63,924 bases of DNA, filler included, from Folioceros fuciformis (GCA_049999805.1; 10 parts of 10 records of this genome joined end to end with filler, not necessarily neighbours in it); one strand, 5' to 3'; positions 26,052 through 54,240 are shown, counted from the first letter of the whole stretch. Program-made: numbers and translations. Notes: a model not told the origin generated them from the letters alone.

Positions 26052-29000
26052 TTATGTACCTGCCGTGCTTACTTGCAAACAGTCATGCCTCTCATGACCA
26101 ACCAAGAAGCTATGGACTAGGCCATCCTTGTCTGTCCACCAGCTCTGACCTGGTCGCTTCCTCGCCCTGGTTCTGTGTCCTCTTGATGAAATCTTCCCCG
26201 CCTGCTGCCACATTTGGGCACCGGCGTAGATGTTTGACATCAACAAATATGCTGAGGCGTCTTCCTTGTCCAACTTCATTCGTTCATTGAAAACATGGTG
26301 TGCAACCTCCACATTGCTCCACGTTCGGCAAGCACTTAATAGGGTGCTCCAAACTGTAGCATCAGGCAGTACTGGCATTGTGCTAACCAAATCTAGTGCC
26401 TCCTCCAGCAGCCCTGCACGACCCAGTAGATCCAACATACATTTGTAGTGGTCCTTAGTGGGGGTGATTCTGTACTGTCTCTTCATAGCGTCGAAGAACT
26501 CCCGCCCCTTTTGGACGAGGCCCGCATGACTGCAAACTGTGAGCACACTGACCAGTGTGATGCCATCTGGCTGCACAACATCCTCTCTCATTCTCTGAAG
26601 CAAGTCAAAGACCATTTCACTATCTCCATGACAGGTGTAGCCTGCGATAAGCGCATTCCAGGCGACAACATCTCTATCAGGCAACGCATCGAATGACTGC
26701 AGTGCTTCAAGCATGCTGCCACACTTTCCGTACATATTTATCAAACTACGGGCTATAAACACATCAGTTTCAAACCCTTGTTCAACAATCTGAGCATGTA
26801 TCTGCCTTCCAACACTGAGAGCCGCCACATTTGCACATGCCTGCAGTAGGCACACAAACGTGATAGAATTGGGTGCAGGCAGGCCTTCTTCTTGCATAGC
26901 ACTGTAGAGACGAAGGGCATCCTGCCCCATGCCCTGCTGGGCATATCCAGTTATCATGGCAGTCCAGGTTACCACATCTTTCTTACCAAGTCCATGAAAC
27001 ACTGTTTGAGCATCCTCCAAGCTGCCACACTTCGCATACATGTTCACCAAACTGCTGCCAACAAACACATCATCTTGCTGTCCTCTTGCTCTGATTTCTG
27101 CATGAATATGCTTCCCGGTCTCCAAGGCCTTGGAGCCCACACTGGCACATGCCTGGAGGAGGAACAGAAATGTTACGTTCCCCGGGACACTGATGCCTTC
27201 TTCTTGCATAGCAGTGTAGAGATTCAGGGCTACCTCCCCTTCACCCTGCTGTGAATATCCTGCTATCATGGCAGTCCACGTCAGCACATCCTTATGATCA
27301 AGGCTGTCAAAAACTATCTGAGCATCGTCCAAGCTGCCACACTTCGCATACATGTTCAGTAGACTGTTGGCCACTAACACATCCGCTTGGTGTCCTCGTT
27401 CTCTAAGTTCCACATGAAGATGCCTCCCCTTTTCCAAGGCTGAGGAGCCCACGCTCGCACATGCCTGCAGGAGGCACACATATGTCACAGTAGTAGGCGC
27501 AGCCATGCCTTCTTCTTGCATAGCGCTGTAGAGATGAAGGGCTTCCTGTCCCATGCCCTGCTGCGAATATCCTGCTATCATTGCAGTCCATGCCACCTCA
27601 TTTTTTTGATTAAGTCCGTCAAATACTTTCTGAGCATCTTCCAAGCTCCCGCACTTTGCATACATGTTCACCAAACTGCTTGCCATAAACACATCACTTT
27701 GCTGTCCCATTTCTCGAATTTGCGTATGGAGATGCTTGCCCTTCTCCAATGCTGGGTTGCCCACGGTTGCACACGCCTGCAGGAGGCACACATATGTCAC
27801 AGAATCGGGCACAGCGACGCCTTCTTCTTGCATCGCGCTGTAGAGATGAAGAGCTTCCTGCCCCATGCCCTGCTGTGTGTATCCTGCTATCATGGCGGTC
27901 CACGTCACCACATCTTTGACAGCAAGTCCGTTGAACACAGTTTGCGCCTCCTCCAAGCTGCCACACTTTGCATACATGTTCACCAAACTGTTGGCTACAA
28001 TCCCATCCGCTTGATAACCCAGTCCCCTAATTTGCATATGAAGCTGCTTCCCCATCTCTAAAGCCAGGGAACCCACATTCACACAAGCCTGCAGCAGACA
28101 CACAAAGGTCACCGGATTTGGCACCGTCGAGCCTTCATCCTGCATCGCACTGTAGAGACGAAGGGCGTCCCACCCCATACCGCGCTGGGAGTATCCTGCG
28201 ATCATGGCAGTCCATGTCACAACATCTTTTTTACTAAGTCCGTCGAACACTTTCTGGGCATCTTCCAAGCTGCCACATTTTGAATACATGTTCAACAAAC
28301 TGTTGGCTATAACCAAATCAGCCTCATGTCCTCGTTGTCTGATTTGAGCATGAAGCTGCTTCCCCTTCTCCAACGCGTGGGCACCCACTCTTGCACATCC
28401 CTGCAACAGGTTGACAAATGTAACACGGCTGGGTACGACCATGCCTCCCTCTTGCATAGCATTGTAGAGACGAAAAGCTTCCAGTCCCCTGCCATGCTGA
28501 GCACAGCCTGCAATCATGGCATTCCACGTTACAACATCTTTCTGACGAAGCCCCCCAAAAACAGCCTGCGCATACTCCAACCTTCCACACTTGGCATACA
28601 TGTCCACCAGGCAACTAGACAGGAACGAATTAGGTTCCACGCCGTAAGCCAACACATCTGCGTGCACCTGCTGTCCAGCTTTCAAGTCCCCGCCCCTTGC
28701 ACAAGCCTGGAGGGCCGCGACAAACACATGCCTATCTGGCATAGCACCGGACATGCACATGGCATGGTAGAGCTGGATGGCCCGCTTGTCTTGTCCATGT
28801 CTAACGTGGGCCGAAATTATCGAAGACCACATGAAGGCATCTGGATCAGCAACGGAATCAAACACATCCATTGCCTCTCGCAACCTTCCATGAGAAACAT
28901 ACATCCGCAGGATGTGATTGCACAGGAACGTGTCCGACTGAAATCCCCGCTCCACCGTGAAAGCATGGACCCGGGTACCTTGGACGAGATCCCTCTCGGC

Positions 29001-29258
29001 CACACATTTCTTCAAAACGTTGTAAAATAGGGATCTGGGAACAGAGCAGCAGTCGCTATGCAACAGAAGCTCCAAGGCATCCACAGCCTGCGTGATGGTC
29101 CCCTCCTCACACAGCTTGCTCACGGCTTCAGCCGTTACCCTTCCGTTGTGCGCCAACGCCTGCTTCCCTGCTAAAGTCAGGCGAGCGGAAGCTCTCCCTA
29201 CAATATCCATGGACGCGCCAGCGATGATACCTCGAAGGAGCCCGCGACACCATCCCAA
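26052..29258 (-). CDS. PLS-class PPR protein with E1/E2 and WW-type PG box, DYW catalytic domain absent (organellar RNA-editing factor)
   Basis: Intronless frame (first in-frame ATG 29210); seven P-L-S triplets plus P2-L2-S2, E domains, ending RKRPGQSWWTDKDGLVHSF. Confidence 0.96.
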   Translation of the reverse strand: MGWCRGLLRGIIAGASMDIVGRASARLTLAGKQALAHNGRVTAEAVSKLCEEGTITQAVDALELLLHSDCCSVPRSLFYNVLKKCVAERDLVQGTRVHAFTVERGFQSDTFLCNHILRMYVSHGRLREAMDVFDSVADPDAFMWSSIISAHVRHGQDKRAIQLYHAMCMSGAMPDRHVFVAALQACARGGDLKAGQQVHADVLAYGVEPNSFLSSCLVDMYAKCGRLEYAQAVFGGLRQKDVVTWNAMIAGCAQHGRGLEAFRLYNAMQEGGMVVPSRVTFVNLLQGCARVGAHALEKGKQLHAQIRQRGHEADLVIANSLLNMYSKCGSLEDAQKVFDGLSKKDVVTWTAMIAGYSQRGMGWDALRLYSAMQDEGSTVPNPVTFVCLLQACVNVGSLALEMGKQLHMQIRGLGYQADGIVANSLVNMYAKCGSLEEAQTVFNGLAVKDVVTWTAMIAGYTQQGMGQEALHLYSAMQEEGVAVPDSVTYVCLLQACATVGNPALEKGKHLHTQIREMGQQSDVFMASSLVNMYAKCGSLEDAQKVFDGLNQKNEVAWTAMIAGYSQQGMGQEALHLYSAMQEEGMAAPTTVTYVCLLQACASVGSSALEKGRHLHVELRERGHQADVLVANSLLNMYAKCGSLDDAQIVFDSLDHKDVLTWTAMIAGYSQQGEGEVALNLYTAMQEEGISVPGNVTFLFLLQACASVGSKALETGKHIHAEIRARGQQDDVFVGSSLVNMYAKCGSLEDAQTVFHGLGKKDVVTWTAMITGYAQQGMGQDALRLYSAMQEEGLPAPNSITFVCLLQACANVAALSVGRQIHAQIVEQGFETDVFIARSLINMYGKCGSMLEALQSFDALPDRDVVAWNALIAGYTCHGDSEMVFDLLQRMREDVVQPDGITLVSVLTVCSHAGLVQKGREFFDAMKRQYRITPTKDHYKCMLDLLGRAGLLEEALDLVSTMPVLPDATVWSTLLSACRTWSNVEVAHHVFNERMKLDKEDASAYLLMSNIYAGAQMWQQAGKISSRGHRTRARKRPGQSWWTDKDGLVHSFLVGHERHDCLQVSTAGT

Positions 29259-31706
29259 CCTGACCTGTGTGCCCAGTTTGTGTCACAAGAAGCTCGAAAC
29301 GACAGCAATTGGGACAAGGGAATCGTCCTGGTGGTTGGTGCTTGTGTGTTGCAAGACAGAATGAGCATCCCTGTCCTCGTAATGAATTTTGTGGTTTGCG
29401 GCACGATGGCATTCGAGAACGGAAAGCTGAACACAATTTTGACATCAGCAGTTCGCAGGAGTGTCGAACTCCAGCCACCTCGGAGAACTCCAGATGTCTT
29501 GTCTGGCCACTACACCTTCACGGTTGTGTTAACAGCGCGGAGCGTGGTTGCTGCTGCTGAACATGTTACCAACTCTGAACCTTTCCACATCCGACATGCA
29601 GGAGCCGGAATGGCAGTAGAAGCGACCCGCCTGAGCCTTTCCATGGCCTCCGCCATATGTTGCCACAGCGCGAGTCTGTCCACAGCCTGAGCTGGTGGGA
29701 AAATGTTCAGGAAGCTCCTGTGTGTGACATCTTCACGGCCCAAACTCCAAGCCAACTCGCCATATCTAAGCGTCCCTCCTAAACTCCACGGTGTAGAACC
29801 TCACCTGTTTCTTTGTTTGCTTCTCTTCATTCTGAAAGGGCTTGCAAGCAAGCAAGCACGCCAAGGAAAGAGAACGAAACCGGTGTCAAACGGGGATCCG
29901 TAGACCTGTCTCTAGTCGATGTACGAAAGAAGCTCCGAGGAGATCTGCAGCCTGACCCACGCTCCCCCACCTCACAACGGTCGCCCAGGGCCGTACCAAA
30001 CACCCTCCTGCCGTTGTGCCAAAACGTGGCTTCCACCTTCAAGTCAGGAGCGGAATCTGTTCCCACAATAACCATTCACGCGGTAACATCACACGAGAAC
30101 TCAGTACCCGATATCGAGGTTCAAACAATTCATCAATGGACTCACGAAATTTACTAATTCATCCGGGTTCAATGATCTTGACGCCAAGAACTTAGGTCAC
30201 GGAGGATGGGAGAGCATGACAGAATTTCATCACCACGTATAGGTTTCAATCAGAAGAGTCGCACTATCCACGTGCAAAAGGGAGGCCAAGCTAAAGGGGA
30301 AAAGGAGGGAATGTATAAAGTTGAACCCAACTAGTCTATCTATAACCCAAAATCTCCTAGAGACAAGACATAGTGAGTGAGAACAAACATGGCATACAAA
30401 AACCAACACACTCACCAGCAAGGCTGTAGCAAGCCTAGATAAAGCATAAACAAGACAAAAGAAAGACAATGGAACTCTTCAATCCATATCTTGTGGACAA
30501 ATTAAGTCTCTGCATTGATGGCATATTTATTTGTCTCTCAATTTCTCTAGTGGCCCTTAGGAGGAAGGACATCTAGATAAGAGTTCATTGGAGCTCCCCA
30601 TTCAAGCTATCATCTCTATGTTAAGATTTATGGCTCTTTGAAGCCATGGCATCTAGACATGGGTTAGAGATCTTCACTAGTGGTTCAAGTGCATGAGGAC
30701 TCCGAGGAGTACCAAATTCCTCCCATGATCTACAAACCCTTTTGGGTGGCTTGGACAAGTGCTTAGATGGAATGACAAACTTCCCACTTAAGCATGCACC
30801 CTTAGGGTGGATTAGTGCTCTGATGAGGTGCTTCAACCGACGGCACCTTTTCTACCTTGTTGTCATACTTTATTACTCATGTACGTATGGTTCATTAGTT
30901 AATAAATATTCACACCACACCACATTGTACATATTAAACATTGCACAACGAGGCTGAGATGAGGCACCACAATTTCTGGCACTTGCATCTACATTTCTTA
31001 GAACTATAGCTTGGCTTCTCCAATCCACAACTTGGTCGTGCTCAATATGCGGCTTCTTCAATCCACAATTAAATTATGTGGTCTTGTACATTGGATTTTC
31101 AACAAGAGAACGCACTTACAAGAATATGCACTCAGAACAATAACTAAGAGAATATAAGCTTACAGTTACACCTACAAGCTTATAGTTACACCTACACCTA
31201 TAGTAGACACTGCTAAGCTAGGCTTTTATGCAAACTGATGCAAATCATCGTGCTTTGCATGATATGCATTACACACAACATGGATTAGTTCTCCAATAGG
31301 CTGCCACCTTACCTTTCTCCTAAGGCAATGCAAAGAGAGACTCGATGTAAACTAGAGAGACTCGATGTAAACTTCTGGTTGCATGTGTGAGTGTGTACCA
31401 AGCTTGAGCTTAGAAGTGTTAGGGAAGTCCACACTGTCACATCGCCCTTGGTTGGTCGAATTCAAGGAAGGTTCCGTCCAAACCGTACGACGTGGAGGCT
31501 CACATGTTTGTTTGCATATTTGTTTGTTTGCTCAAAAGAGCCTGCGTTTCGTAAGGCAAGAGGGTTTATCCGAGACAGGAAATTGAGAGAGCATTAAGGA
31601 GGAGGAGGTGGGAAGACTAATATATTGGTTTATAGCGCGCGTGGATGAGGCTTTCAGACGCCCCCGCATCCAGTATCTTGCCAATCTGGAGGGCGTGGCA
31701 TCCACG

Positions 31707-34730: not shown

Positions 34731-37217
34731 GGATAACAGCATAGCAATACCATATGGGAGTCTTAGGGGGCAACCACTGCTTTGTAGCCATGCAGAAACT
34801 CCACCAGATGTTCCCCGCGGAAGATAAGTATGAATGGATGGAACGGCACGTGTATGCTGGGTTGACAGAGGAAGAGATGAGGGTTCTCGTTGTCGACCAC
34901 AATGTCTATGCAGACAAGAGGAAGAGGATGGGGTTCATTGAGTAGGTGCAATACATCCATGACGAGCTTGATATTTTTTTTCTAGAATCATTCAGTGGAA
35001 GAGAAGCCGCCAGTGAAGTGGAAGTTCAACCTGTACAGGTTGCTAGGTATGACTGACGAAGGTGGAGATCCTCACGACACAGACAGGGTGCAGAAGATGG
35101 TGGATAGGCAGACCTTGCCATATTGAGTAGCCAGATGCTCTGGGGTTCTTTGGGACAATGTGGACAAGATCTTCAGAATGTGGGAACAGGGTGAGCTGCC
35201 AGAAGAGCACGGTAACAGCAGGGACCACAAAGAGGGCAAAGGCAAAACGTATAGGAGATTCTGCCTTACAAAGTTCTGTTACCCAAGTGATGGAAGATAG
35301 CAGCAGGAGGCCAAGAGCGATGGAGGGCAGGCCATGGAGAGCCTTTCAAGGTGTCCCAACAGGTGTGAAAGGAGAGGAGATGTTGATAGCGGTGACATAG
35401 AAGGTCATTCAAGGCAAGCTTCAGTTGAGAGACATGGACACTGAAGTCAAGAAGAAGAAGAAGATTCATCTGATATAACATGCCTTCCGACTGGCCATGA
35501 AGTGTGACATCTTTGAAGAAGTAGAAGAGATCTACCCAAAGCATACAGAAGATGGCCATCTTCTGAAATTCCAGATAGCCTTTGCCAAAGTGGTAAGTTT
35601 TTGCTGTTATTTTCCTTACCCCTAATGTAGTGCATTAGACTAGAGTGCGCCGGTCTACCGGCGCCCTCTGGTCCTGCATGGGCAGCAGTGCACCGGTAGA
35701 CCGGCGTATTGCTGTCGGCTGGAGCTCCAGTGCGCCGGTTACCGGCACACTTGGGTAGCCGGCTTGGGCAAAAGTGCGCTGGTAGACCGGTGCACTAGGG
35801 CAACCTTCGCGGGATACAGTGCGCCAGTAGACCGGGGCACTAGAGCAACCTTCGCGGGATACAGTGCGCCAGTAGACCGGCGCACTTCCCCCACCACGGG
35901 CTCCAGTGCGCTGGAAGACCGGCGCACTCATGTCTGCTGAGGTTAAAGTAGCTTAATCGGTAGCCAAACTAACGTCTACTATTCTGGTTGCAAAAACCTT
36001 CAGATATAACAGACTTGGAGTCACTGCCGAAACCATTCCAGGATTTCATATATTCGGTGAAAAACTGGAAAAGGATGGAAGAGGAGAAGCAGAAGCTGGC
36101 AGCAGCTGATATGGGATTATCGGATTATCGGATTCGCAGGGTTATCGGATTTTCGGGTTCCGGCGAGTAACTCAAAGGTAAAATACCAGGTTATTCAAAG
36201 GAATGTACTCGAAATGAAGGCATTTCTTGTCAAACGCCCCTATATGCTGCTATTTGCAAACTTGCCTCGAGGATTACAAAGGCATGAGTATGACAAGCAA
36301 ATGAAGGTAGCCGAGTTAGATGAAATACTTCGAGGGTTCAGTGAGTGCACTTCAAGCAATATTTTTAGAGTTATTCTAATGCACGGAGTAGATATGATTT
36401 CGGAAGCAAGGGAGGCACTACGGCCATGGTGCAAGAATAGGAGCATTTAGACACTGGTATGAGAGAAGACAAAAATACCCCCAAACGCAGGAGCAGTGGA
36501 AAGAGTTGAATATGTCACTGTTGGGAGTGCAGTTCAAACAGAGGCTCAAGAATCGAAGGCTGCACTTTTTGCGAATCAGGGATTTCTCTTACCAAGGGTT
36601 ATAAGGCATGGAGCGGTGGGGAAGAAGCACCTTTTCCATTCAGCAGATGCGCATGTCATCTCCCCTTACCAAGAACCATTAGGGTTGATGAGTATGCTTA
36701 TTAATATGTTTTCTTGTGAAGGGGACTAGGTGGTTGATGCATGCGCAGGCTCAGGATCTCTTCTCCAAAGTGCAATTCAGCATGGAAGGCATGCAATGGC
36801 TATGATGTGGATGTCAGGTGCACTTCATATATTATGCAGCGGATTTTCGGGCTAGGGTCTTTGCTTGACGCACATGAGGAGATTACAATAAAGTCATTTA
36901 CACGAGGCCCCTCAAAGTTTTGGGTGAAGGAAGTGTGCAGTGATGGTAGCATGGATTGCAAACTGATGGTGTTCAGTATGTTGAGCAAGAAAGGAGAGGT
37001 TATATCCCATATTGATGATAGGCCCGTAGAGGACCTTTACGCCATCACTATCTGGGATGAGAATTGTACTTTGCCGCCCCAAACTACAGAGGACTCCAAC
37101 TTCTTGTTGCTACGAGTTGGTGCCGATGACTTTGGCGATATGGATGCACAACGGCTGAGAGATTTAGATGTAGTTGTGGATTCCGAAGCCAACAAGGACG
37201 ACCCAGTTTTTGTTTGA
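34731..37217 (+). pseudogene. Degenerate ParB-like domain + N4C/N6A-type DNA methyltransferase gene
   Basis: 34754: VLGGNHCFVA...VYAGLTEEEMRVLVVDHN (ParB/Srx-like GxHR-type motif). One frame 36214-36800 with stops: LLFANLPRG...TLV*EK...SPYQEPLGLMSMLINMFSCEGD*VVDACAGSGS...GRHA, then a frameshift to GYDVDVRCTSYIMQRI. Putative intron from gtaagt at 35593 to ~35990. Confidence 0.7.
35644..35928. repeat. Array of seven 23-24-bp palindromes separated by 18-21-bp spacers
   Basis: Consensus agtgcgccggtagaccggcgcact at 35644, 35687, 35729, 35773, 35818, 35863, 35905; a solo copy at 37280-37301. Confidence 0.93.
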
Positions 37218-37399
37218 CAATAAACTTGACTTAACTTGAACTTGTCATAAACTTGAACTTGAAGTACTTTGAATAGTTTGTGCGCCGGTTGATCGGCGCA
37301 CCATATGCTTCAGTTGAGAAATATCAAGTTTCTAGTAGAAAACTCATTTATTTCATTTATTTTGGTTTTATTGACCTTTGCAGAAAAAAGAATATACGA

Positions 37400-38350
37400 A
37401 TACATGTCGGTGGCGTCATTGTTTGTAAAATTAAATCAAAGGTAGATAAGGAGCGCAGATCACGACAAATGTGAAATGCACAAAACGGGCTTTGTAGAAT
37501 CCGTCTGGGTTAGACCATGTTATATGTGGTTGTGTAATGCTAGAATGATGTCTCATGCAAGGCAGCATACAACTTCAGCTATGGAAGGATTCCATAGATT
37601 TATAAAAGAACGTGTAGCATTTAGCAAGTCAAGTTTGCCTGGCCGTAAACTAGACTGGTTACTACACCAATTAGTGAATGTGGTTGCTCGACATTATTGG
37701 TACCAGCACTTCACAAAAAGAAGGGGGATACAGGCATAACAAGAAGCTGAAGGCTTTGGAGGAAACCGCTATAAAGGGTGCATAAACTATTCCTATTAAC
37801 TCAATTATTTTACCGCATGCCGAAAATGTTGCTGTACATTATTTGTCTTCATCAACCCCTAACTTGTGGTATGTGATTGAATATGTTTACTCTCCTTGGG
37901 CTACATGCTCATGTCCAATGGGGAACAAAGGTTTCATCTGCAAGCATGTGGTGAAAGTTCAACAACTCCTTGGCATATACAAGGATGGTGCAGCAGCATG
38001 TAGGCAAAATGGAAGAAAAAATGAAGTGTATGTTGCTGAAAGTAGTGATACCAATACCTTGGCTATGGCTTTTTGGATGCAGGATCAAGAAGCTCCTCAC
38101 ATTGTGTTGCCTAGTAACCCCTTGGTGGCACCAACATGTAAGACACAATTGGAGATGGCAAAAGAAAAACGGTTGGATTTTATTAAAACAATATGTGCTG
38201 AAGTATGTGATGCCGCATTTGAGCATTCAGATTTAGGTTTTGGGATAGCCTACATTATGGAGCAAACTCAATAGAAGGTGAGACAACTAGTGGCACAGGC
38301 ATATGAAAAACCTCAACGGAAACTAGTGTTGGAAACTTTTGCTGAGAATG
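37400..38350 (+). mobile_element. Degenerate Mutator-like (MULE) transposase C-terminus with SWIM zinc finger
   Basis: HTTSAMEGFHRFIK...GRKLDWLLHQL...HYWY, then ATCSCPMGNKGFICKHVVKV (CxC-x7-CxH, SWIM); several stops; no TIRs identified. Confidence 0.7.
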
Positions 38351-39168
38351 AGGGTACGAACAGATTGAAACGATATGTTGGTTTGGAGGAAGTTGTGTGT
38401 AAGAAGAAAAAGAAGATGAGGTGGAACATAGGCAGTTGACAAAGGGTGGATTGATAATCTGAAATAGGCTTTTGATTTTAGAAGCTGAGGAATCCACTTT
38501 TGTAGGGTGCTAAGAGGAGATAGCAGATAGCAATCAGTTTTGATCGGGTCAATTACGCTTTTTGTCTTAGAAGGTCAGAATCCACTCTTCTGGTTTTAGA
38601 AGGTGAGAATTTGGCTCAATGCCAGCAGCATGCACTATGTACAGCAACTCCTCCAAACCCAGTGAGGAAACTTAAGCACTAAAGCTTGTTGTAAGAGGTG
38701 CCCATTCCCTACCACCACCGATCATGTTGATCAAACATGCTTCTGCCGCAGCTTCTGCCACCTTCTCGGGACCGAACCTAGAGTTGCACATGTTTGTGAA
38801 GGATCGCATGTGCTTCATGCCATACTCGGCCAGCGAGCCGCACTCACTCTTTTAAGCCTGCACCTACATTCATGCATCCAGACATCCAAATTAACCTCAA
38901 ATCTTTGTGAAAGAGAAAACGAAACATTACGAAGACCAGCTCCAGCTATTGCCCACTTACCGCGGCCTTGAGGCACTGCCAGTCGTCAACAAGAGGCAAG
39001 GCTGGCTTCTGTAATGCTGCCAACATTTCAGGCCCCCACCCAGACCCAAAGACTAGCTTCCCCATCAAGTTGACATTGGAGTGGATGTGTGCACGCTGAG
39101 ACATTATTCCTGCCATGTCCAGAGCAGCTTTCACTTTGTTCGTCGACCCTTTTCATGAATGCTTGTAC

Positions 39169-40997
39169 TGGAAAATCAATCGCAAAGGGGACAAGGAAGA
39201 GAAGGTGTAGGATCACTAGAGGAGCATGGTGGAGGAGAGGAGAAGAGGAGGCAGAGAGGAGAGGAGAAAAAGAGGTCACATTGAGAGTGGTTGGCAAGGG
39301 AGCTCAAGGGGGTATTTATACCCTCTAGAAGAGCTCCCTAGGAAGCTTCACAAGAAGCTCACAGGAAGCTGCGCAAGAAGCTTCCTACAGATTAGCTTAA
39401 GCTAATCTAAACTAATGATACTTAACTAGACACTAATCTTAGACTAAACACATTAGTCTAAGCACATTAGCTAGACACTAGTCTTAGACTAAACACATTA
39501 GCCTAAGCACATTGGGCTTTAATAACCCTACAACCTCCCACTTAAAGGCCAATTTACCTTCATAAGAGAGTGGTCTAGCTCATGCCCATGAGTGTCCGAG
39601 CTTGTGTGAATTGCTCCGTAGAGAGCCCCTTGGTAAGAACATCTGCAGGGTTCTGACTGGTGTGAACTTTGACAAGCTGTACCCTCTTGTCTTCCAACAC
39701 CTCTCGAATGAAGTGATACTTCACTTCCACATGTTTGGTCTTCGCATGAAACACTGGATTCTTCGCCAATTGAATAGCACTCTGGCTATCACAATGCAAC
39801 ACTGGCAGCACAACCTTGATCCCCAAATCTCCCACTAAATGAGCAAGCCACATGGCTTCCTTGCACGCCTCAATTGCTGCAACATACTCGGCCTTTGTGG
39901 TAGAGAGCGTTATGCACGATTGCAAACGAGATCGCCATGAAACTGGCCCTCCTGTGCACATGAATACATAACCTGATGTGGACCTCCTTTTGTCCATATC
40001 CCCTACATAATCAGCATCCGTATATCCCACGACAGATGCATCTTCACTACCAAAACATAAGCACAAAGCTTTTGTACCATTCAAGTACCTCATAACTCCT
40101 TTCACTGCCTCCCAATGCTTATTGCCAGGGTTTGACATGAACCTGCTAACCACTCCCACTGCAAAAGCAATGTCAGGACGTGTGGCAATCATTGCATACA
40201 TCAAACTCCCTACAGCTGATGAGTATGGAACCTTCTCCATTTCAGCTTTATCCTCCGCAGAACTTGGGCAATCCTTGCTCAAAAGTTTCACATATGGAGG
40301 CAACAGAGTACTTAAGACCTTCCCCTTCTCCATATTGAAACGTTGAAGCACCTTGTTAATGTATTCTGTCTGAGACAAGTACATCAAACGCTTCTGTCTG
40401 TCTCGACGAATACGCATGCCAAGAATATGGCTTGCCTCCCCCAAGTCTGTCATGTCAAAGCGACCATTCAACTTTGACTGCAACGCTGAAATCTCATCAC
40501 TGTTAGTCCCAGCAATTAGCATATCATCCACATAGAGGACTAGAATGAGCAAGCTTCCATCCTTAGCTTGCTTCGTATAGAGGCAATGATCCATATCGCT
40601 ACGCTTGTAGCCTTGAGAAAGCATAAATGAGTGGAACTTGAAATACCACTCCTTGGGTGCCTGCTTCAAACCATAAAGGCTCTTCTTTAACTTGCACACC
40701 AGACTCTCTTTGCCCTCCTTAATGAAACCCTCTGGTTGCTGCATGTATACCTCTTCCTGGAGATCACCATGCAGAAATGCCGACTTCACATCCATCTGGA
40801 CAAGTTCCATGTCGTTCCTCGCAACCAGACCAAGAACACATCTCAAGGTAGTCATTTTGACAACTGGTGAGAAAATCTCATCAAAGTCAATACCTTGCTG
40901 TTGCTTAAAACCTTTAGCAACCAATCGTGCCTTGTACTTGGGTTTGCCATAATGGGGTATGTCCTTCATCTTATACACCCATTTGCATGGCAACGCC
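39169..40997 (-). mobile_element. Tnt1/Tork-like copia RT-RNase H with PPT and 3' LTR (~39532 down to 39169)
   Basis: Open 472-aa frame with KARLVAKGF, LYVDDML, YTDADY, AKTKHVEVKYHF. LTR start tgtagggttattaaagccc is shared with 45400; candidate CA end at 39169. Confidence 0.94.
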
Positions 40998-53338: not shown

Positions 53339-54240
53339 TCACACAGGGTGCATGATAGCCAGTGCTTGTTCCCTATCTTCTGTGTGTCTTACGAAGCTAA
53401 CAAGTCTCTCTAGTTGACTTTCCTCAGCAGTAATGCGGTTAGGCTCTTGAATGCAAAAAGTAGGAACTTTAAACTCAACAGGCATTACTGGAAAATGACC
53501 GTAGGTGAGGTAGTACGATGTCTGTTGAGTCGTGATTCTTTTCGCAGTTTTGTATGCCCAAAGTGCTAAATGGAGCTTTAGATCCCAGTTGTATGCATAC
53601 TCAACTATTAGTTTGTTGAGGATCTTGTAGAAGAGCCCGTTTGCCTTCTCTGTCAAATCGTTAGCCTTCGGATTATAGGGAGTTGTCTTCCTGTGGCGAA
53701 CGTTGAAGTAGACCGTCATGTGAGAAATGATGTCATTCATGAAGCGCGAACCTCGGTTGCTGATTAGCTCCAGTAGGCATCCATAGCCAGCAATCACCAG
53801 CTTGTACAAGAATCTGGCCACCACATGAGTTGTGTCAACCTGCAGGGCTTGTGCCTCCATTGTACGCGTGCGGCAATCGGTGGCCACAAGGATGTACTAA
53901 TTCTAGAGGTGCTTGTCTTGGGTTGGATAGGTCCAACAAAGTCAATGCCCCACTCCTCAAATGGGGCCAAGGCCAAGATAGGAACTAAGGGCCATTGAGT
54001 TGTGGCTGATGGCTTGCCAACCCGCTGGCAAGCATTGCAGTGTTTCACAAATTCTCTTGCATCCTAATGCATGCTCGGCCACTAGTACCCTGTTTCGAGA
54101 AGTTTTCTACACGTGATGTGTGCAGCGAAATGTCCTCTAGCCTCTCCTTCGTGTCATTTAGTTAGCACCCGCAGAATCTTCGCCTCCGTTACCCACACCC
54201 TTTCTCTTCCGTTCGGCCTTGCTTGATACATGCTGTCTCT
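53339..54240 (-). mobile_element. Ty3/gypsy integrase fragment
   Basis: CNACQRVG, PFEEWGIDFVGPI, LISNRGSRF, TTPYNPKAN, ALWAYKTA. Confidence 0.9.

Follow-up and report, generated by a model that had tools for sequence, protein, structure and literature searches.

Can a transposon in a plant genome carry its own DNA methyltransferase gene, together with a means of recognising its own DNA? The question is raised by a locus at positions 34731–39294 of a stretch of DNA of 63,924 nt, here termed the window, in which an earlier note had perceived a ParB-like/amino-methyltransferase gene beside a transposase of the Mutator-like element (MULE) type with a SWIM zinc finger. The locus is probably a decayed copy of a repeated transposon-like element that holds a ParB-methyltransferase gene, a SWIM-bearing MULE/FAR1-like remnant and part of a legumain gene of the host. 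Ten separate segments, with N44-TTAATTAATTAA-N44 spacers between them, make up the window, and neighbouring segments are therefore uninformative on linkage. The locus lies in the segment 34731–40997, the start of which falls inside the ParB-like N-terminal domain. Features and their positions are listed in Table 1.

The repeat state of the locus was determined with two DNA runs from one sample (X1 and X2), which contain about half of the words of the window and whose contigs were placed on it at 80% likeness. Copy state was judged by the number of contigs per site; summed depth does not equal copy number. At the sites checked across the ParB, methyltransferase and SWIM parts there are 10–28 diverged contigs in X1 and X2. 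Differing contigs number 14 (X1) and 11 (X2) at site 34844 in the ParB part, 25 and 28 at site 36620 in the methyltransferase part, and 14 and 17 at site 37750 and 15 and 16 at site 38324, both in the SWIM part. Beyond 38500, at sites 38566 and 38874, 5–6 were found (X3). Diverged contigs also tile the spacer between the two genes (37051–37390, 37126–37447, 37264–37464 and 37346–37495), and C>T and G>A changes make up 358 of the 958 differing places in X1. The contig data fit one repeat family that holds both parts and that would have decayed under cytosine methylation. That the locus is a multi-copy repeat, as had been proposed, is borne out by the many diverged contigs under the methyltransferase and SWIM parts alike. 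A side observation concerns X3, in which C>T and G>A account for 526 of 826 places on 34731–40997, far above X1 and X2 of the same sample.

The gene itself belongs to a eukaryotic family. A translation of 36061–36855 with stops written as X (an X-read) was used as a phmmer query against 1.84 billion representatives, and 50 proteins were found at E ≤ 1e-3, three of these at ≤ 1e-10 and none at ≤ 1e-30. The best three (E 1.2e-20, 4.3e-19 and 4.1e-13; 35%, 30% and 29% identity) are alignable over the full domain, and the likeness is thus more than chance. The relatives are eukaryotic proteins of one common architecture, of which intact examples come from Chara, a fern and Ginkgo as well as from many eukaryote-like metagenome contigs. 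Named relatives are Ginkgo Gb_37443 (670 amino acids), a protein of Adiantum nelumboides and Chara braunii GBG86584.1 (1825 amino acids; P0007). The Chara protein has two complete ParB-methyltransferase units in tandem, the first with a damaged S-adenosylmethionine (SAM) motif region, and probably represents two neighbouring copies joined by annotation. In a scan of metagenome contigs, 98 of 518 candidate stretches encode relatives, and many of these have split open reading frames (ORFs) and low G+C, as expected for intron-bearing eukaryotic genes. The rarity in eukaryotes that the earlier note had assumed does not hold in view of these numbers and of the transposon-borne algal cases in print. 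Eighty of the 98 were kept as loci (391 kb) for tblastn. At E ≤ 1e-3 the N-terminal piece of the window gene (34733–35011) has 26 matches among them, the best at 3e-15, the middle piece (35131–35593) has 10 and the methyltransferase piece 80. Since all three pieces match, the pseudogene spans 34731–37217 (+) and is homologous throughout. The motifs of the middle region align with those of P0008, P0010 and P0038.

The window copy is dead. Eight stops lie in frame, and the frame changes at least four times (near 34975, 35260, 36106–36160 and 36803), which is more damage than the stops and one frameshift reported earlier; the pseudogene state itself is upheld, and the motifs that had been quoted are all present on the + strand. 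The stops at 36460 and 36727 fall on conserved tryptophan columns of the family alignment and are thus point changes from G to A rather than intron signals. At 36803 the frame is shifted by a one-base loss that is private to some copies, an extra C standing behind 36803 in five X1 contigs and four X2 contigs. The undamaged reading is GRHAMAIDVDV, near the family's GRNVIAVDVD, so that the reading GRHA.GYDVD given earlier is present in the window copy but is not the undamaged form. Paralogue indels coincide with frame breaks of the window copy at 34948–34974, 35199, 35249, 36803 and 37716–37723. The coding region also contains, at 36106–36160 (+), a short GGATTATC-like tandem repeat that disrupts the frame between two exon pieces. 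A 38-nt mini-intron at 35593–35630 was considered and set aside, being too short for a plant intron.

The methyltransferase domain is of the beta class. Pfam N6_N4_Mtase (PF01555) matches the frame 1 X-read of 34732–38400 at E 5.8e-6 over profile positions 160–206 of 221, a marginal match of 26.8 bits against a curated cut-off of 26.7; the same read also matches SWIM. When single ORF pieces were scanned, no Pfam family was found save SWIM and two weak sub-threshold matches on the SWIM ORF. PF01555 is present in all ten relatives scanned, above the cut-off in nine and with up to 65.7 bits. The motif order is permuted, with NLPRG upstream of DACAGSGS in one frame. A model of P0003, from the same clade as the window copy (pLDDT 82, pTM 0.83), has fold matches to CcrM (3.7e-15), M.RsrI (3.6e-13) and M.MboIIA (3.9e-12), and further to M.BceJIV, M1.HpyAVI, M.PvuII and the bdelloid N4CMT (E 4e-10). 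Profile match, permuted order and the fold of P0003 support the beta-class amino-methyltransferase assignment.

The catalytic motif IV is unusual. In place of (D/N/S)-P-P-(Y/F/W) the window has NLPRG. Over the 17 alignment rows that cover the motif, DLPRG occurs in five, NLPRG in one (the window), DIPYG in five and DFPYG in two, with DAPYG, DVPYG, DIPHG (Ginkgo) and DIPST in one each. Motif IV could be placed in 36 metagenome loci, where DIPYGF is found 20 times, DVPYGF twice, DIPHG[FY] 12 times, DPPFGW twice and DLPRG not at all. The likely prokaryotic outgroup matches have D[PL]PYG with TQKP. In a maximum-likelihood tree the window groups with P0001, P0002 and P0003 at 99/99; this clade lies beside a Ginkgo/Adiantum clade with weak values (84/92) and is nested among D-x-P-Y/H-G clades, and the eukaryotic family as a whole is split from the D[PL]PYG outgroup at 100/100. 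All five clade members that cover the motif have DLPRG at a mutual identity of 35–55%, and the SAM motif is retained. This conservation and the tree placement argue that arginine for the stacking aromatic is a derived, conserved clade state and not decay of the window copy. The stacking aromatic of motif IV has an established role in beta-class enzymes, and for this reason the DLPRG clade would not be a standard adenine-N6/cytosine-N4 writer. Judged by sequence, canonical base methylation by this clade is doubtful. More likely the clade serves as a module that binds DNA or SAM, or its substrate has changed. The earlier suggestion that NLPR for DPPY marks a non-canonical derivative is thus strengthened by the conservation of DLPRG.

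Support for the N-terminal domain comes mainly from structure. A relative, L001:1117–2130 (338 amino acids), was modelled by AlphaFold with a 17-row alignment (pLDDT 78.5, pTM 0.69). It has 13 fold matches in the PDB at E ≤ 1e-3, and the first ten listed, as well as that at rank 13, are all ParB or Noc. They include ParB-CDP (6sdk) at 1.1e-5, Myxococcus ParB and Noc (target-normalised TM 0.52); KorB and sulfiredoxin were matched at weaker E. The alignments extend over about 290 columns, which correspond to the N-domain and the helix-turn-helix, and the N-terminal fragment of the window aligns to the modelled region. The sole sequence-profile lead toward ParB/Srx is a weak match of DUF6551 on the Ginkgo protein (E 0.019). 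With good but indirect support from the model, the N-terminal region appears to be ParB-like, with a nucleotide-binding N-domain and a helix-turn-helix. The proposed fusion of a ParB-like domain to a beta-class amino-methyltransferase is supported by both the homology to an intact eukaryotic family and the fold matches of relatives.

Between the middle-region exon and the next exon, at 35645–35927, the gene carries the palindrome GTGCGCCGGTnnACCGGCGCAC seven times in an array. Apart from this array and the copy at 37280, palindromes of this type are absent from the 64-kb window. Five copies pass a strict palindrome test, compared with at most two in 20 shuffles. The layout recurs in several lineages, which have arrays of 20–22-bp palindromes within the gene and next to it, and the palindrome sequence varies from lineage to lineage. 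In L013, L015 and L020 (also L014 and L051), the palindrome GGAGCGAGACnnGTCTCGCTCC stands on both sides of the gene and also at the homologous place inside it. The palindrome ATTCGATACnnnGTATCGAAT is located upstream of the gene in L002, L003, L006 and L010 (nine copies, period 41), and nine copies of a related form downstream of it in L008; L046 has four copies of GGGCCAATCTGCAGATTGGCCC upstream. An array between the middle region and the methyltransferase exon is common to the window, L013, L015 and L020, and extra copies of the own palindrome follow the gene in the window, L015, L020 and L051. As a control, 20 Markov shuffles were made for each of 83 sequences: families of at least three like palindromes are present in 14 of the 83, and shuffles reached that in 1 of 83. 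Two of the 14 are AT-rich (L023, L036) and two have scattered copies in prokaryote-like contigs (L077, L078), which leaves ten convincing cases. Palindromes with 9–10-nt arms are the classic form of a ParB site. The palindromes look like parS-like sites, which would co-evolve with the ParB-like domain.

On the same strand and in the same segment, a transposase-like ORF begins at 37446, 229 nt past the methyltransferase stop, and thus at the distance of about 200 bp given earlier. The SWIM domain (PF04434) is found in ORF 37786–38274 at E 1.8e-5, with 24.6 bits for a cut-off of 19.6. Stops interrupt the remnant at 37737, 37783 and 38272, and its frame changes once near 37740–37785. The E-motif-like sequence SAMEGFHRFIK, 107 codons upstream of SWIM, resembles the third catalytic region of MULE/FAR1 proteins. 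The Atlas gave leads only, with SWIM clusters at 0.91–0.93 and FAR1/MULE clusters at 0.83–0.87. The DDE core is missing from the window copy, and possibly from the repeat family.

A different putative transposase accompanies the gene in another lineage. In L012, L014, L015 and L051, all four from a single metagenome lineage, a convergent ORF comes after the gene; it is 62–83% alike between loci, matches Pfam DUF7869 at E 9e-50 and has D..D..D-type motifs (e.g. L051:963–2981 (–)). There are 154 homologues of this ORF at E ≤ 1e-5; of the 120 listed, about 47 are from one liverwort genome, and others are from Adiantum, Chara and some animals. The ORF looks like the transposase of an undescribed or unnamed family, a reading that follows from the multi-copy homologues in the liverwort. 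It has no matches among PDB sequences, and a literature search found no mention of DUF7869, which might conceivably be the core of the Sola1 transposase. Compared with the window, the DUF7869 ORFs yield no relevant match; one at E 1.4e-4 to 53926–54039, in another segment, comes from the integrase-bearing N-terminus of P0119. The putative transposase to which the ParB-methyltransferase gene is linked thus differs by lineage, being SWIM-type in the window and the DUF7869 ORF in four loci.

A number of observations weigh against a ParB-methyltransferase gene carried by a MULE-type element. No single contig spans the distance from the methyltransferase coding part to deep in the SWIM ORF, which is bridged by overlapping short contigs. 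The DDE core PF10551 is absent from all three + frames of 34732–38400 and from the single ORFs, protein homology searches with 37786–38274 and 37446–37739 found no homologue, and the MULE assignment would hang on a single SWIM zinc finger. No terminal inverted repeat (TIR) or target-site duplication (TSD) is visible in the window, where the segment does not reach the 5′ end and a Copia element adjoins the 3′ side. The idea of a transposon with its own methyltransferase is in keeping with a repeat family that would hold both parts, and the proposed transposase has a SWIM finger and may be a MULE. In the 391 kb of relatives' loci, tblastn of the transposase and tail pieces of the window gave nothing below E 0.07, and linkage to a SWIM-type transposase is therefore not general; linkage of homologues to a transposase, which the earlier note had proposed to look for, was found instead to a putative one, the DDE-like DUF7869 ORF of four loci. 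As to the ParB-like domain, no Pfam ParB family was found in the window frames (34732–38400) or in 11 family N-termini, and a family profile found no ParB match among PDB sequences, so that of the profile and structure comparisons that had been suggested only the fold of the relative points to ParB/Noc. The TM-scores of that model are modest (0.25–0.37 by query, up to 0.52 by target), and the modelled relative is only 34–38% identical to the window fragment. Summed depth over the palindrome array is about 72, compared with 200–350 in the flanks, and some copies may lack the array. The arrays themselves could instead be subterminal repeats that bind a transposase.

This last possibility, or that of a hairpin-forming satellite that accumulates in such elements, would separate the palindromes from the ParB-like protein. 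In L008 and L010 the arrays are 1–2 kb outside the gene, on either side of it, as are the subterminal repeats of DNA transposons, and one paralogue contig skips from 35665 to 35923, which points to a change in array length by recombination. Against this, the position of the array in the gene is constant across two lineages with differing putative transposases, SWIM-type in the window and DUF7869 in L013/L015/L020, and the arm length is that of ParB sites. Moreover, ParB-like genes paired with inverted-repeat arrays have been reported for red-algal Plavaka elements in the available text of Petroll et al. (2025, bioRxiv 10.1101/2025.02.11.637652). A role of the arrays apart from ParB thus appears unlikely, yet it deserves to be taken seriously.

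A transposon carrier might also be lacking altogether. If the ParB-methyltransferase is an ordinary expanded host gene family, the window copy would be a dead paralogue beside an unrelated MULE-type fragment, which would explain why no TIR, TSD or DDE core is seen in the window, why the Ginkgo, Adiantum and Chara relatives are annotated as plain genes, and why 76 of the 80 relatives' loci have no transposase-like neighbour within their short contigs. We regard this as quite improbable: numerous diverged contigs lie over both parts and the spacer with summed depths that are alike, C>T and G>A abound among the differences, as they do in silenced repeats, a second lineage links the gene to a multi-copy DDE-like ORF at four paralogous loci, and the algal cases in print, as far as their available text goes, sit inside transposons. 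An origin by integration of a DNA virus (giant virus or Polinton-like) or by phage-derived transfer, rather than by a cut-and-paste transposon, has in its favour that the domain pair is of a prokaryote/phage type (Iyer et al., 2016, as seen in part), that ParB-methyltransferase fusions are typical of phages and that the nearest matches outside the family carry D[PL]PYG...TQKP as do bacterial enzymes. Such an origin is very hard to reconcile with the other data. Of 65 candidate stretches from 2.9 million viral contigs, no more than 2 encode a relative, and these are weak (23–27% identity), the eukaryotic family forms one clade at 100/100, the segment 34731–40997 has no viral hallmark genes and the split ORFs of relatives are consistent with introns.

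With a transposon-like element as the preferred explanation, a function can be proposed. The main gene would have encoded an accessory protein with a ParB-type module, a helical linker and a beta-class amino-methyltransferase domain. The ParB-like module would recognise the 22-bp palindromes, in the array inside the gene and in the copy just after it, and in this way tether the protein, methyltransferase domain included, to the DNA of its own element. The outcome may be a self-marking or a shielding of the transposon, which would be mobilised by the neighbouring transposase. More broadly, and as a speculation that we hold with rather less than even confidence, streptophyte DNA transposons may carry a portable ParB/parS-like self-recognition cassette, consisting of the gene and a co-evolving palindrome array at a fixed place. 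Such a cassette would hop between superfamilies (SWIM/MULE-type, DUF7869 DDE-like in a bryophyte-like lineage, Sola1 and Plavaka in algae), and its DLPRG form would serve as a clamp without catalysis, loading at the palindromes and protecting the element against silencing by the host.

Other features flank the element. The legumain fragment may be a captured host-gene piece, recalling Pack-MULE capture, or flanking DNA. A contig of X4, about 83% alike the fragment, skips its intron, from 38861 to 38959, with CT..AC ends. Among the sequencing runs, none is listed as RNA for this stretch; X4, for which the RNA label is a guess, covers only 38493–39537 and 40165–40582 and has no coverage of the methyltransferase or SWIM parts. 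From 39120 the summed depth rises about 100-fold, and 15–17 contigs have loose ends at 39294, which is probably the long terminal repeat (LTR) end of the Copia element. The other segments of the window contain Copia elements and a long pentatricopeptide-repeat (PPR) ORF, and the source therefore looks like a land plant. The PPR ORF, at 26052–29282 (–), is unbroken and encodes 1076 amino acids, a land-plant-like feature. Rfam gave no matches on the window.

Table 1. Features of the segment that holds the ParB-methyltransferase pseudogene and the SWIM-type remnant
Feature	Position	Strand	Remarks
ParB-like N-terminal domain, C-terminal part	34731..35011	+	5′ side cut by segment start; GGNH 34766–34777, VYAGLTEEE 34850–34876, DHNV 34895–34906, FIE-x-VQYIH; stops 34742 TAG, 34943 TAG
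Helical middle region	34986..35592	+	IFRMWEQG 35169–35192, GRPWRAF 35326–35346, YPKHT 35533–35547; two frames; stops 35124 TGA, 35398 TAG, 35476 TAA
Putative intron or linker	35593..35972	+	GTAAGT at 35593; holds the seven-copy array of GTGCGCCGGTnnACCGGCGCAC; splicing inferred
Copies of GTGCGCCGGTnnACCGGCGCAC (starts)	35645, 35688, 35730, 35774, 35819, 35864, 35906	+	Repeat search; spacing 43–45 or 86 nt
Exon piece LESLPKPFQDFIYSVKNWKRMEEEKQKL (frame 0), then GGATTATC-like short repeat	35973..36168	+	Short repeat at 36106–36160; matches N-termini of P0002, P0015, P0031 (LP..F.EH..KA.AW)
Beta-class (permuted) amino-methyltransferase domain and acidic tail	36169..37217	+	LLFANLPRG 36247–36273 (NLPRG 36259–36273), SPYQEP 36661–36678, DACAGSGS 36736–36759, GRHA 36784–36795, GYDVDV 36798–36815, MQRIF 36834–36848; stops 36448 TAG, 36460 TGA, 36727 TAG; terminal stop 37215–37217
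Palindrome copy GTGCGCCGGTTGATCGGCGCAC	37280..37301	+	63 nt past the gene's stop
SWIM-type, MULE/FAR1-like transposase remnant	37446..38439	+	SWIM CSCPMG...CKH 37906–37947; SAMEGFHRFIK 37575–37607; without DDE core; 14–24 diverged contigs at 37750
Legumain (vacuolar processing enzyme) fragment	38672..39152	–	Two prodomain exons, 97-nt intron kept; Pfam PF20985 E 2.1e-12, 3.2e-12
Copia-type retrotransposon, high-copy	39294..40997	–	LTR-like part, then reverse transcriptase (RT)/RNase H ORF 39575–40997 (488 amino acids, Copia RT motifs); bounds or interrupts the repeat

To our knowledge, transposon accessory genes that act on chromatin are rare, and they offer the best leads as to how mobile elements evade or exploit host silencing. 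With the window copy dead, its value is as a pointer to a family that reaches Chara, ferns, Ginkgo and the source genome. A palindrome array that is a lineage's own and has a fixed position in the gene makes for a directly testable pairing of protein and DNA site. In addition, the conserved change from tyrosine to arginine allows a form that is likely a writer to be compared, by nature's own experiment, with one that is likely not. In the available text of published accounts, algal transposons are so far the only ones reported to have a ParB-methyltransferase cargo, and these reports come without tests.

The domain types have known counterparts of several kinds. Bacterial and phage beta-class enzymes (CcrM, M.RsrI, M.MboIIA, M.PvuII) share with the window gene the fold, the SAM motif, (T/Y)QKP and the position of motif IV before motif I. 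They differ in having D/S-P-P-Y/F, whereas D-L-P-R-G is the motif of the window clade, and D-[IVFLA]-P-[YH]-G that of the eukaryotic family at large. The bdelloid N4CMT and Marchantia DN4MT1, N4-methylcytosine writers of bacterial origin, likewise represent a PF01555-type domain in a eukaryote; these are, however, single-copy host genes without ParB, with SPPY-type motifs (TSPPY in Marchantia) and demonstrated activity. ParB-linked methylases have been described from phage loci, and those of phage origin also from algae (Iyer et al., 2016, as seen in part). The VANC protein of the Arabidopsis VANDAL elements, which are MULEs, is an accessory protein with an anti-silencing effect, which binds motifs of its own element and alters the epigenetic state (cited via the available text of Petroll et al., 2025). 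It is an analogy only, as VANC is an unrelated protein with neither a ParB nor a methyltransferase domain.

The closest parallels are in algae. The Ectocarpus transposon Sola1-1_Ec32 has an accessory gene for a 1104-amino acid protein with ParB-like and DNA methyltransferase domains, which is proposed to bind and mark its own element (Dinatale et al., 2025, PMC12477816, available text). The host is a brown alga and the gene is on the strand opposite to the Sola1 transposase, whereas the window is land-plant-like and has a same-strand SWIM-type remnant; the window copy is also dead and has arginine for the aromatic of motif IV, a comparison made with the description of the Ectocarpus protein. 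In red-algal Plavaka elements, according to the text available of Petroll et al. (2025), PAG2 combines a PF01555 methylase with SET and PAG3 a ParB-like domain with a 2-oxoglutarate (2OG) oxygenase, and tandem inverted-repeat arrays adjoin the ParB-like gene. This cargo is mobile between transposon superfamilies, one of which is Mutator, and has homologues in Chondrus Mutator, Zisupton and Fanzor elements. The two domains are in separate proteins in Plavaka; in the window they are fused and the array is inside the gene. The window shares with the algal cases the presence of both domains in a repeated element and inverted-repeat arrays nearby, the borders of the element being outside the view. 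Full-text literature searches, with the supplements of the algal papers aside, found no land-plant or charophyte report of transposon-borne ParB-methyltransferase genes. The kind of element is therefore already known from transposons of brown, red and green algae, and the window provides a land-plant member. What goes beyond the print found is the reach into streptophytes, the clade with a conserved change from tyrosine to arginine, and the palindrome arrays, which are specific to each lineage and stand at a constant place within the gene.

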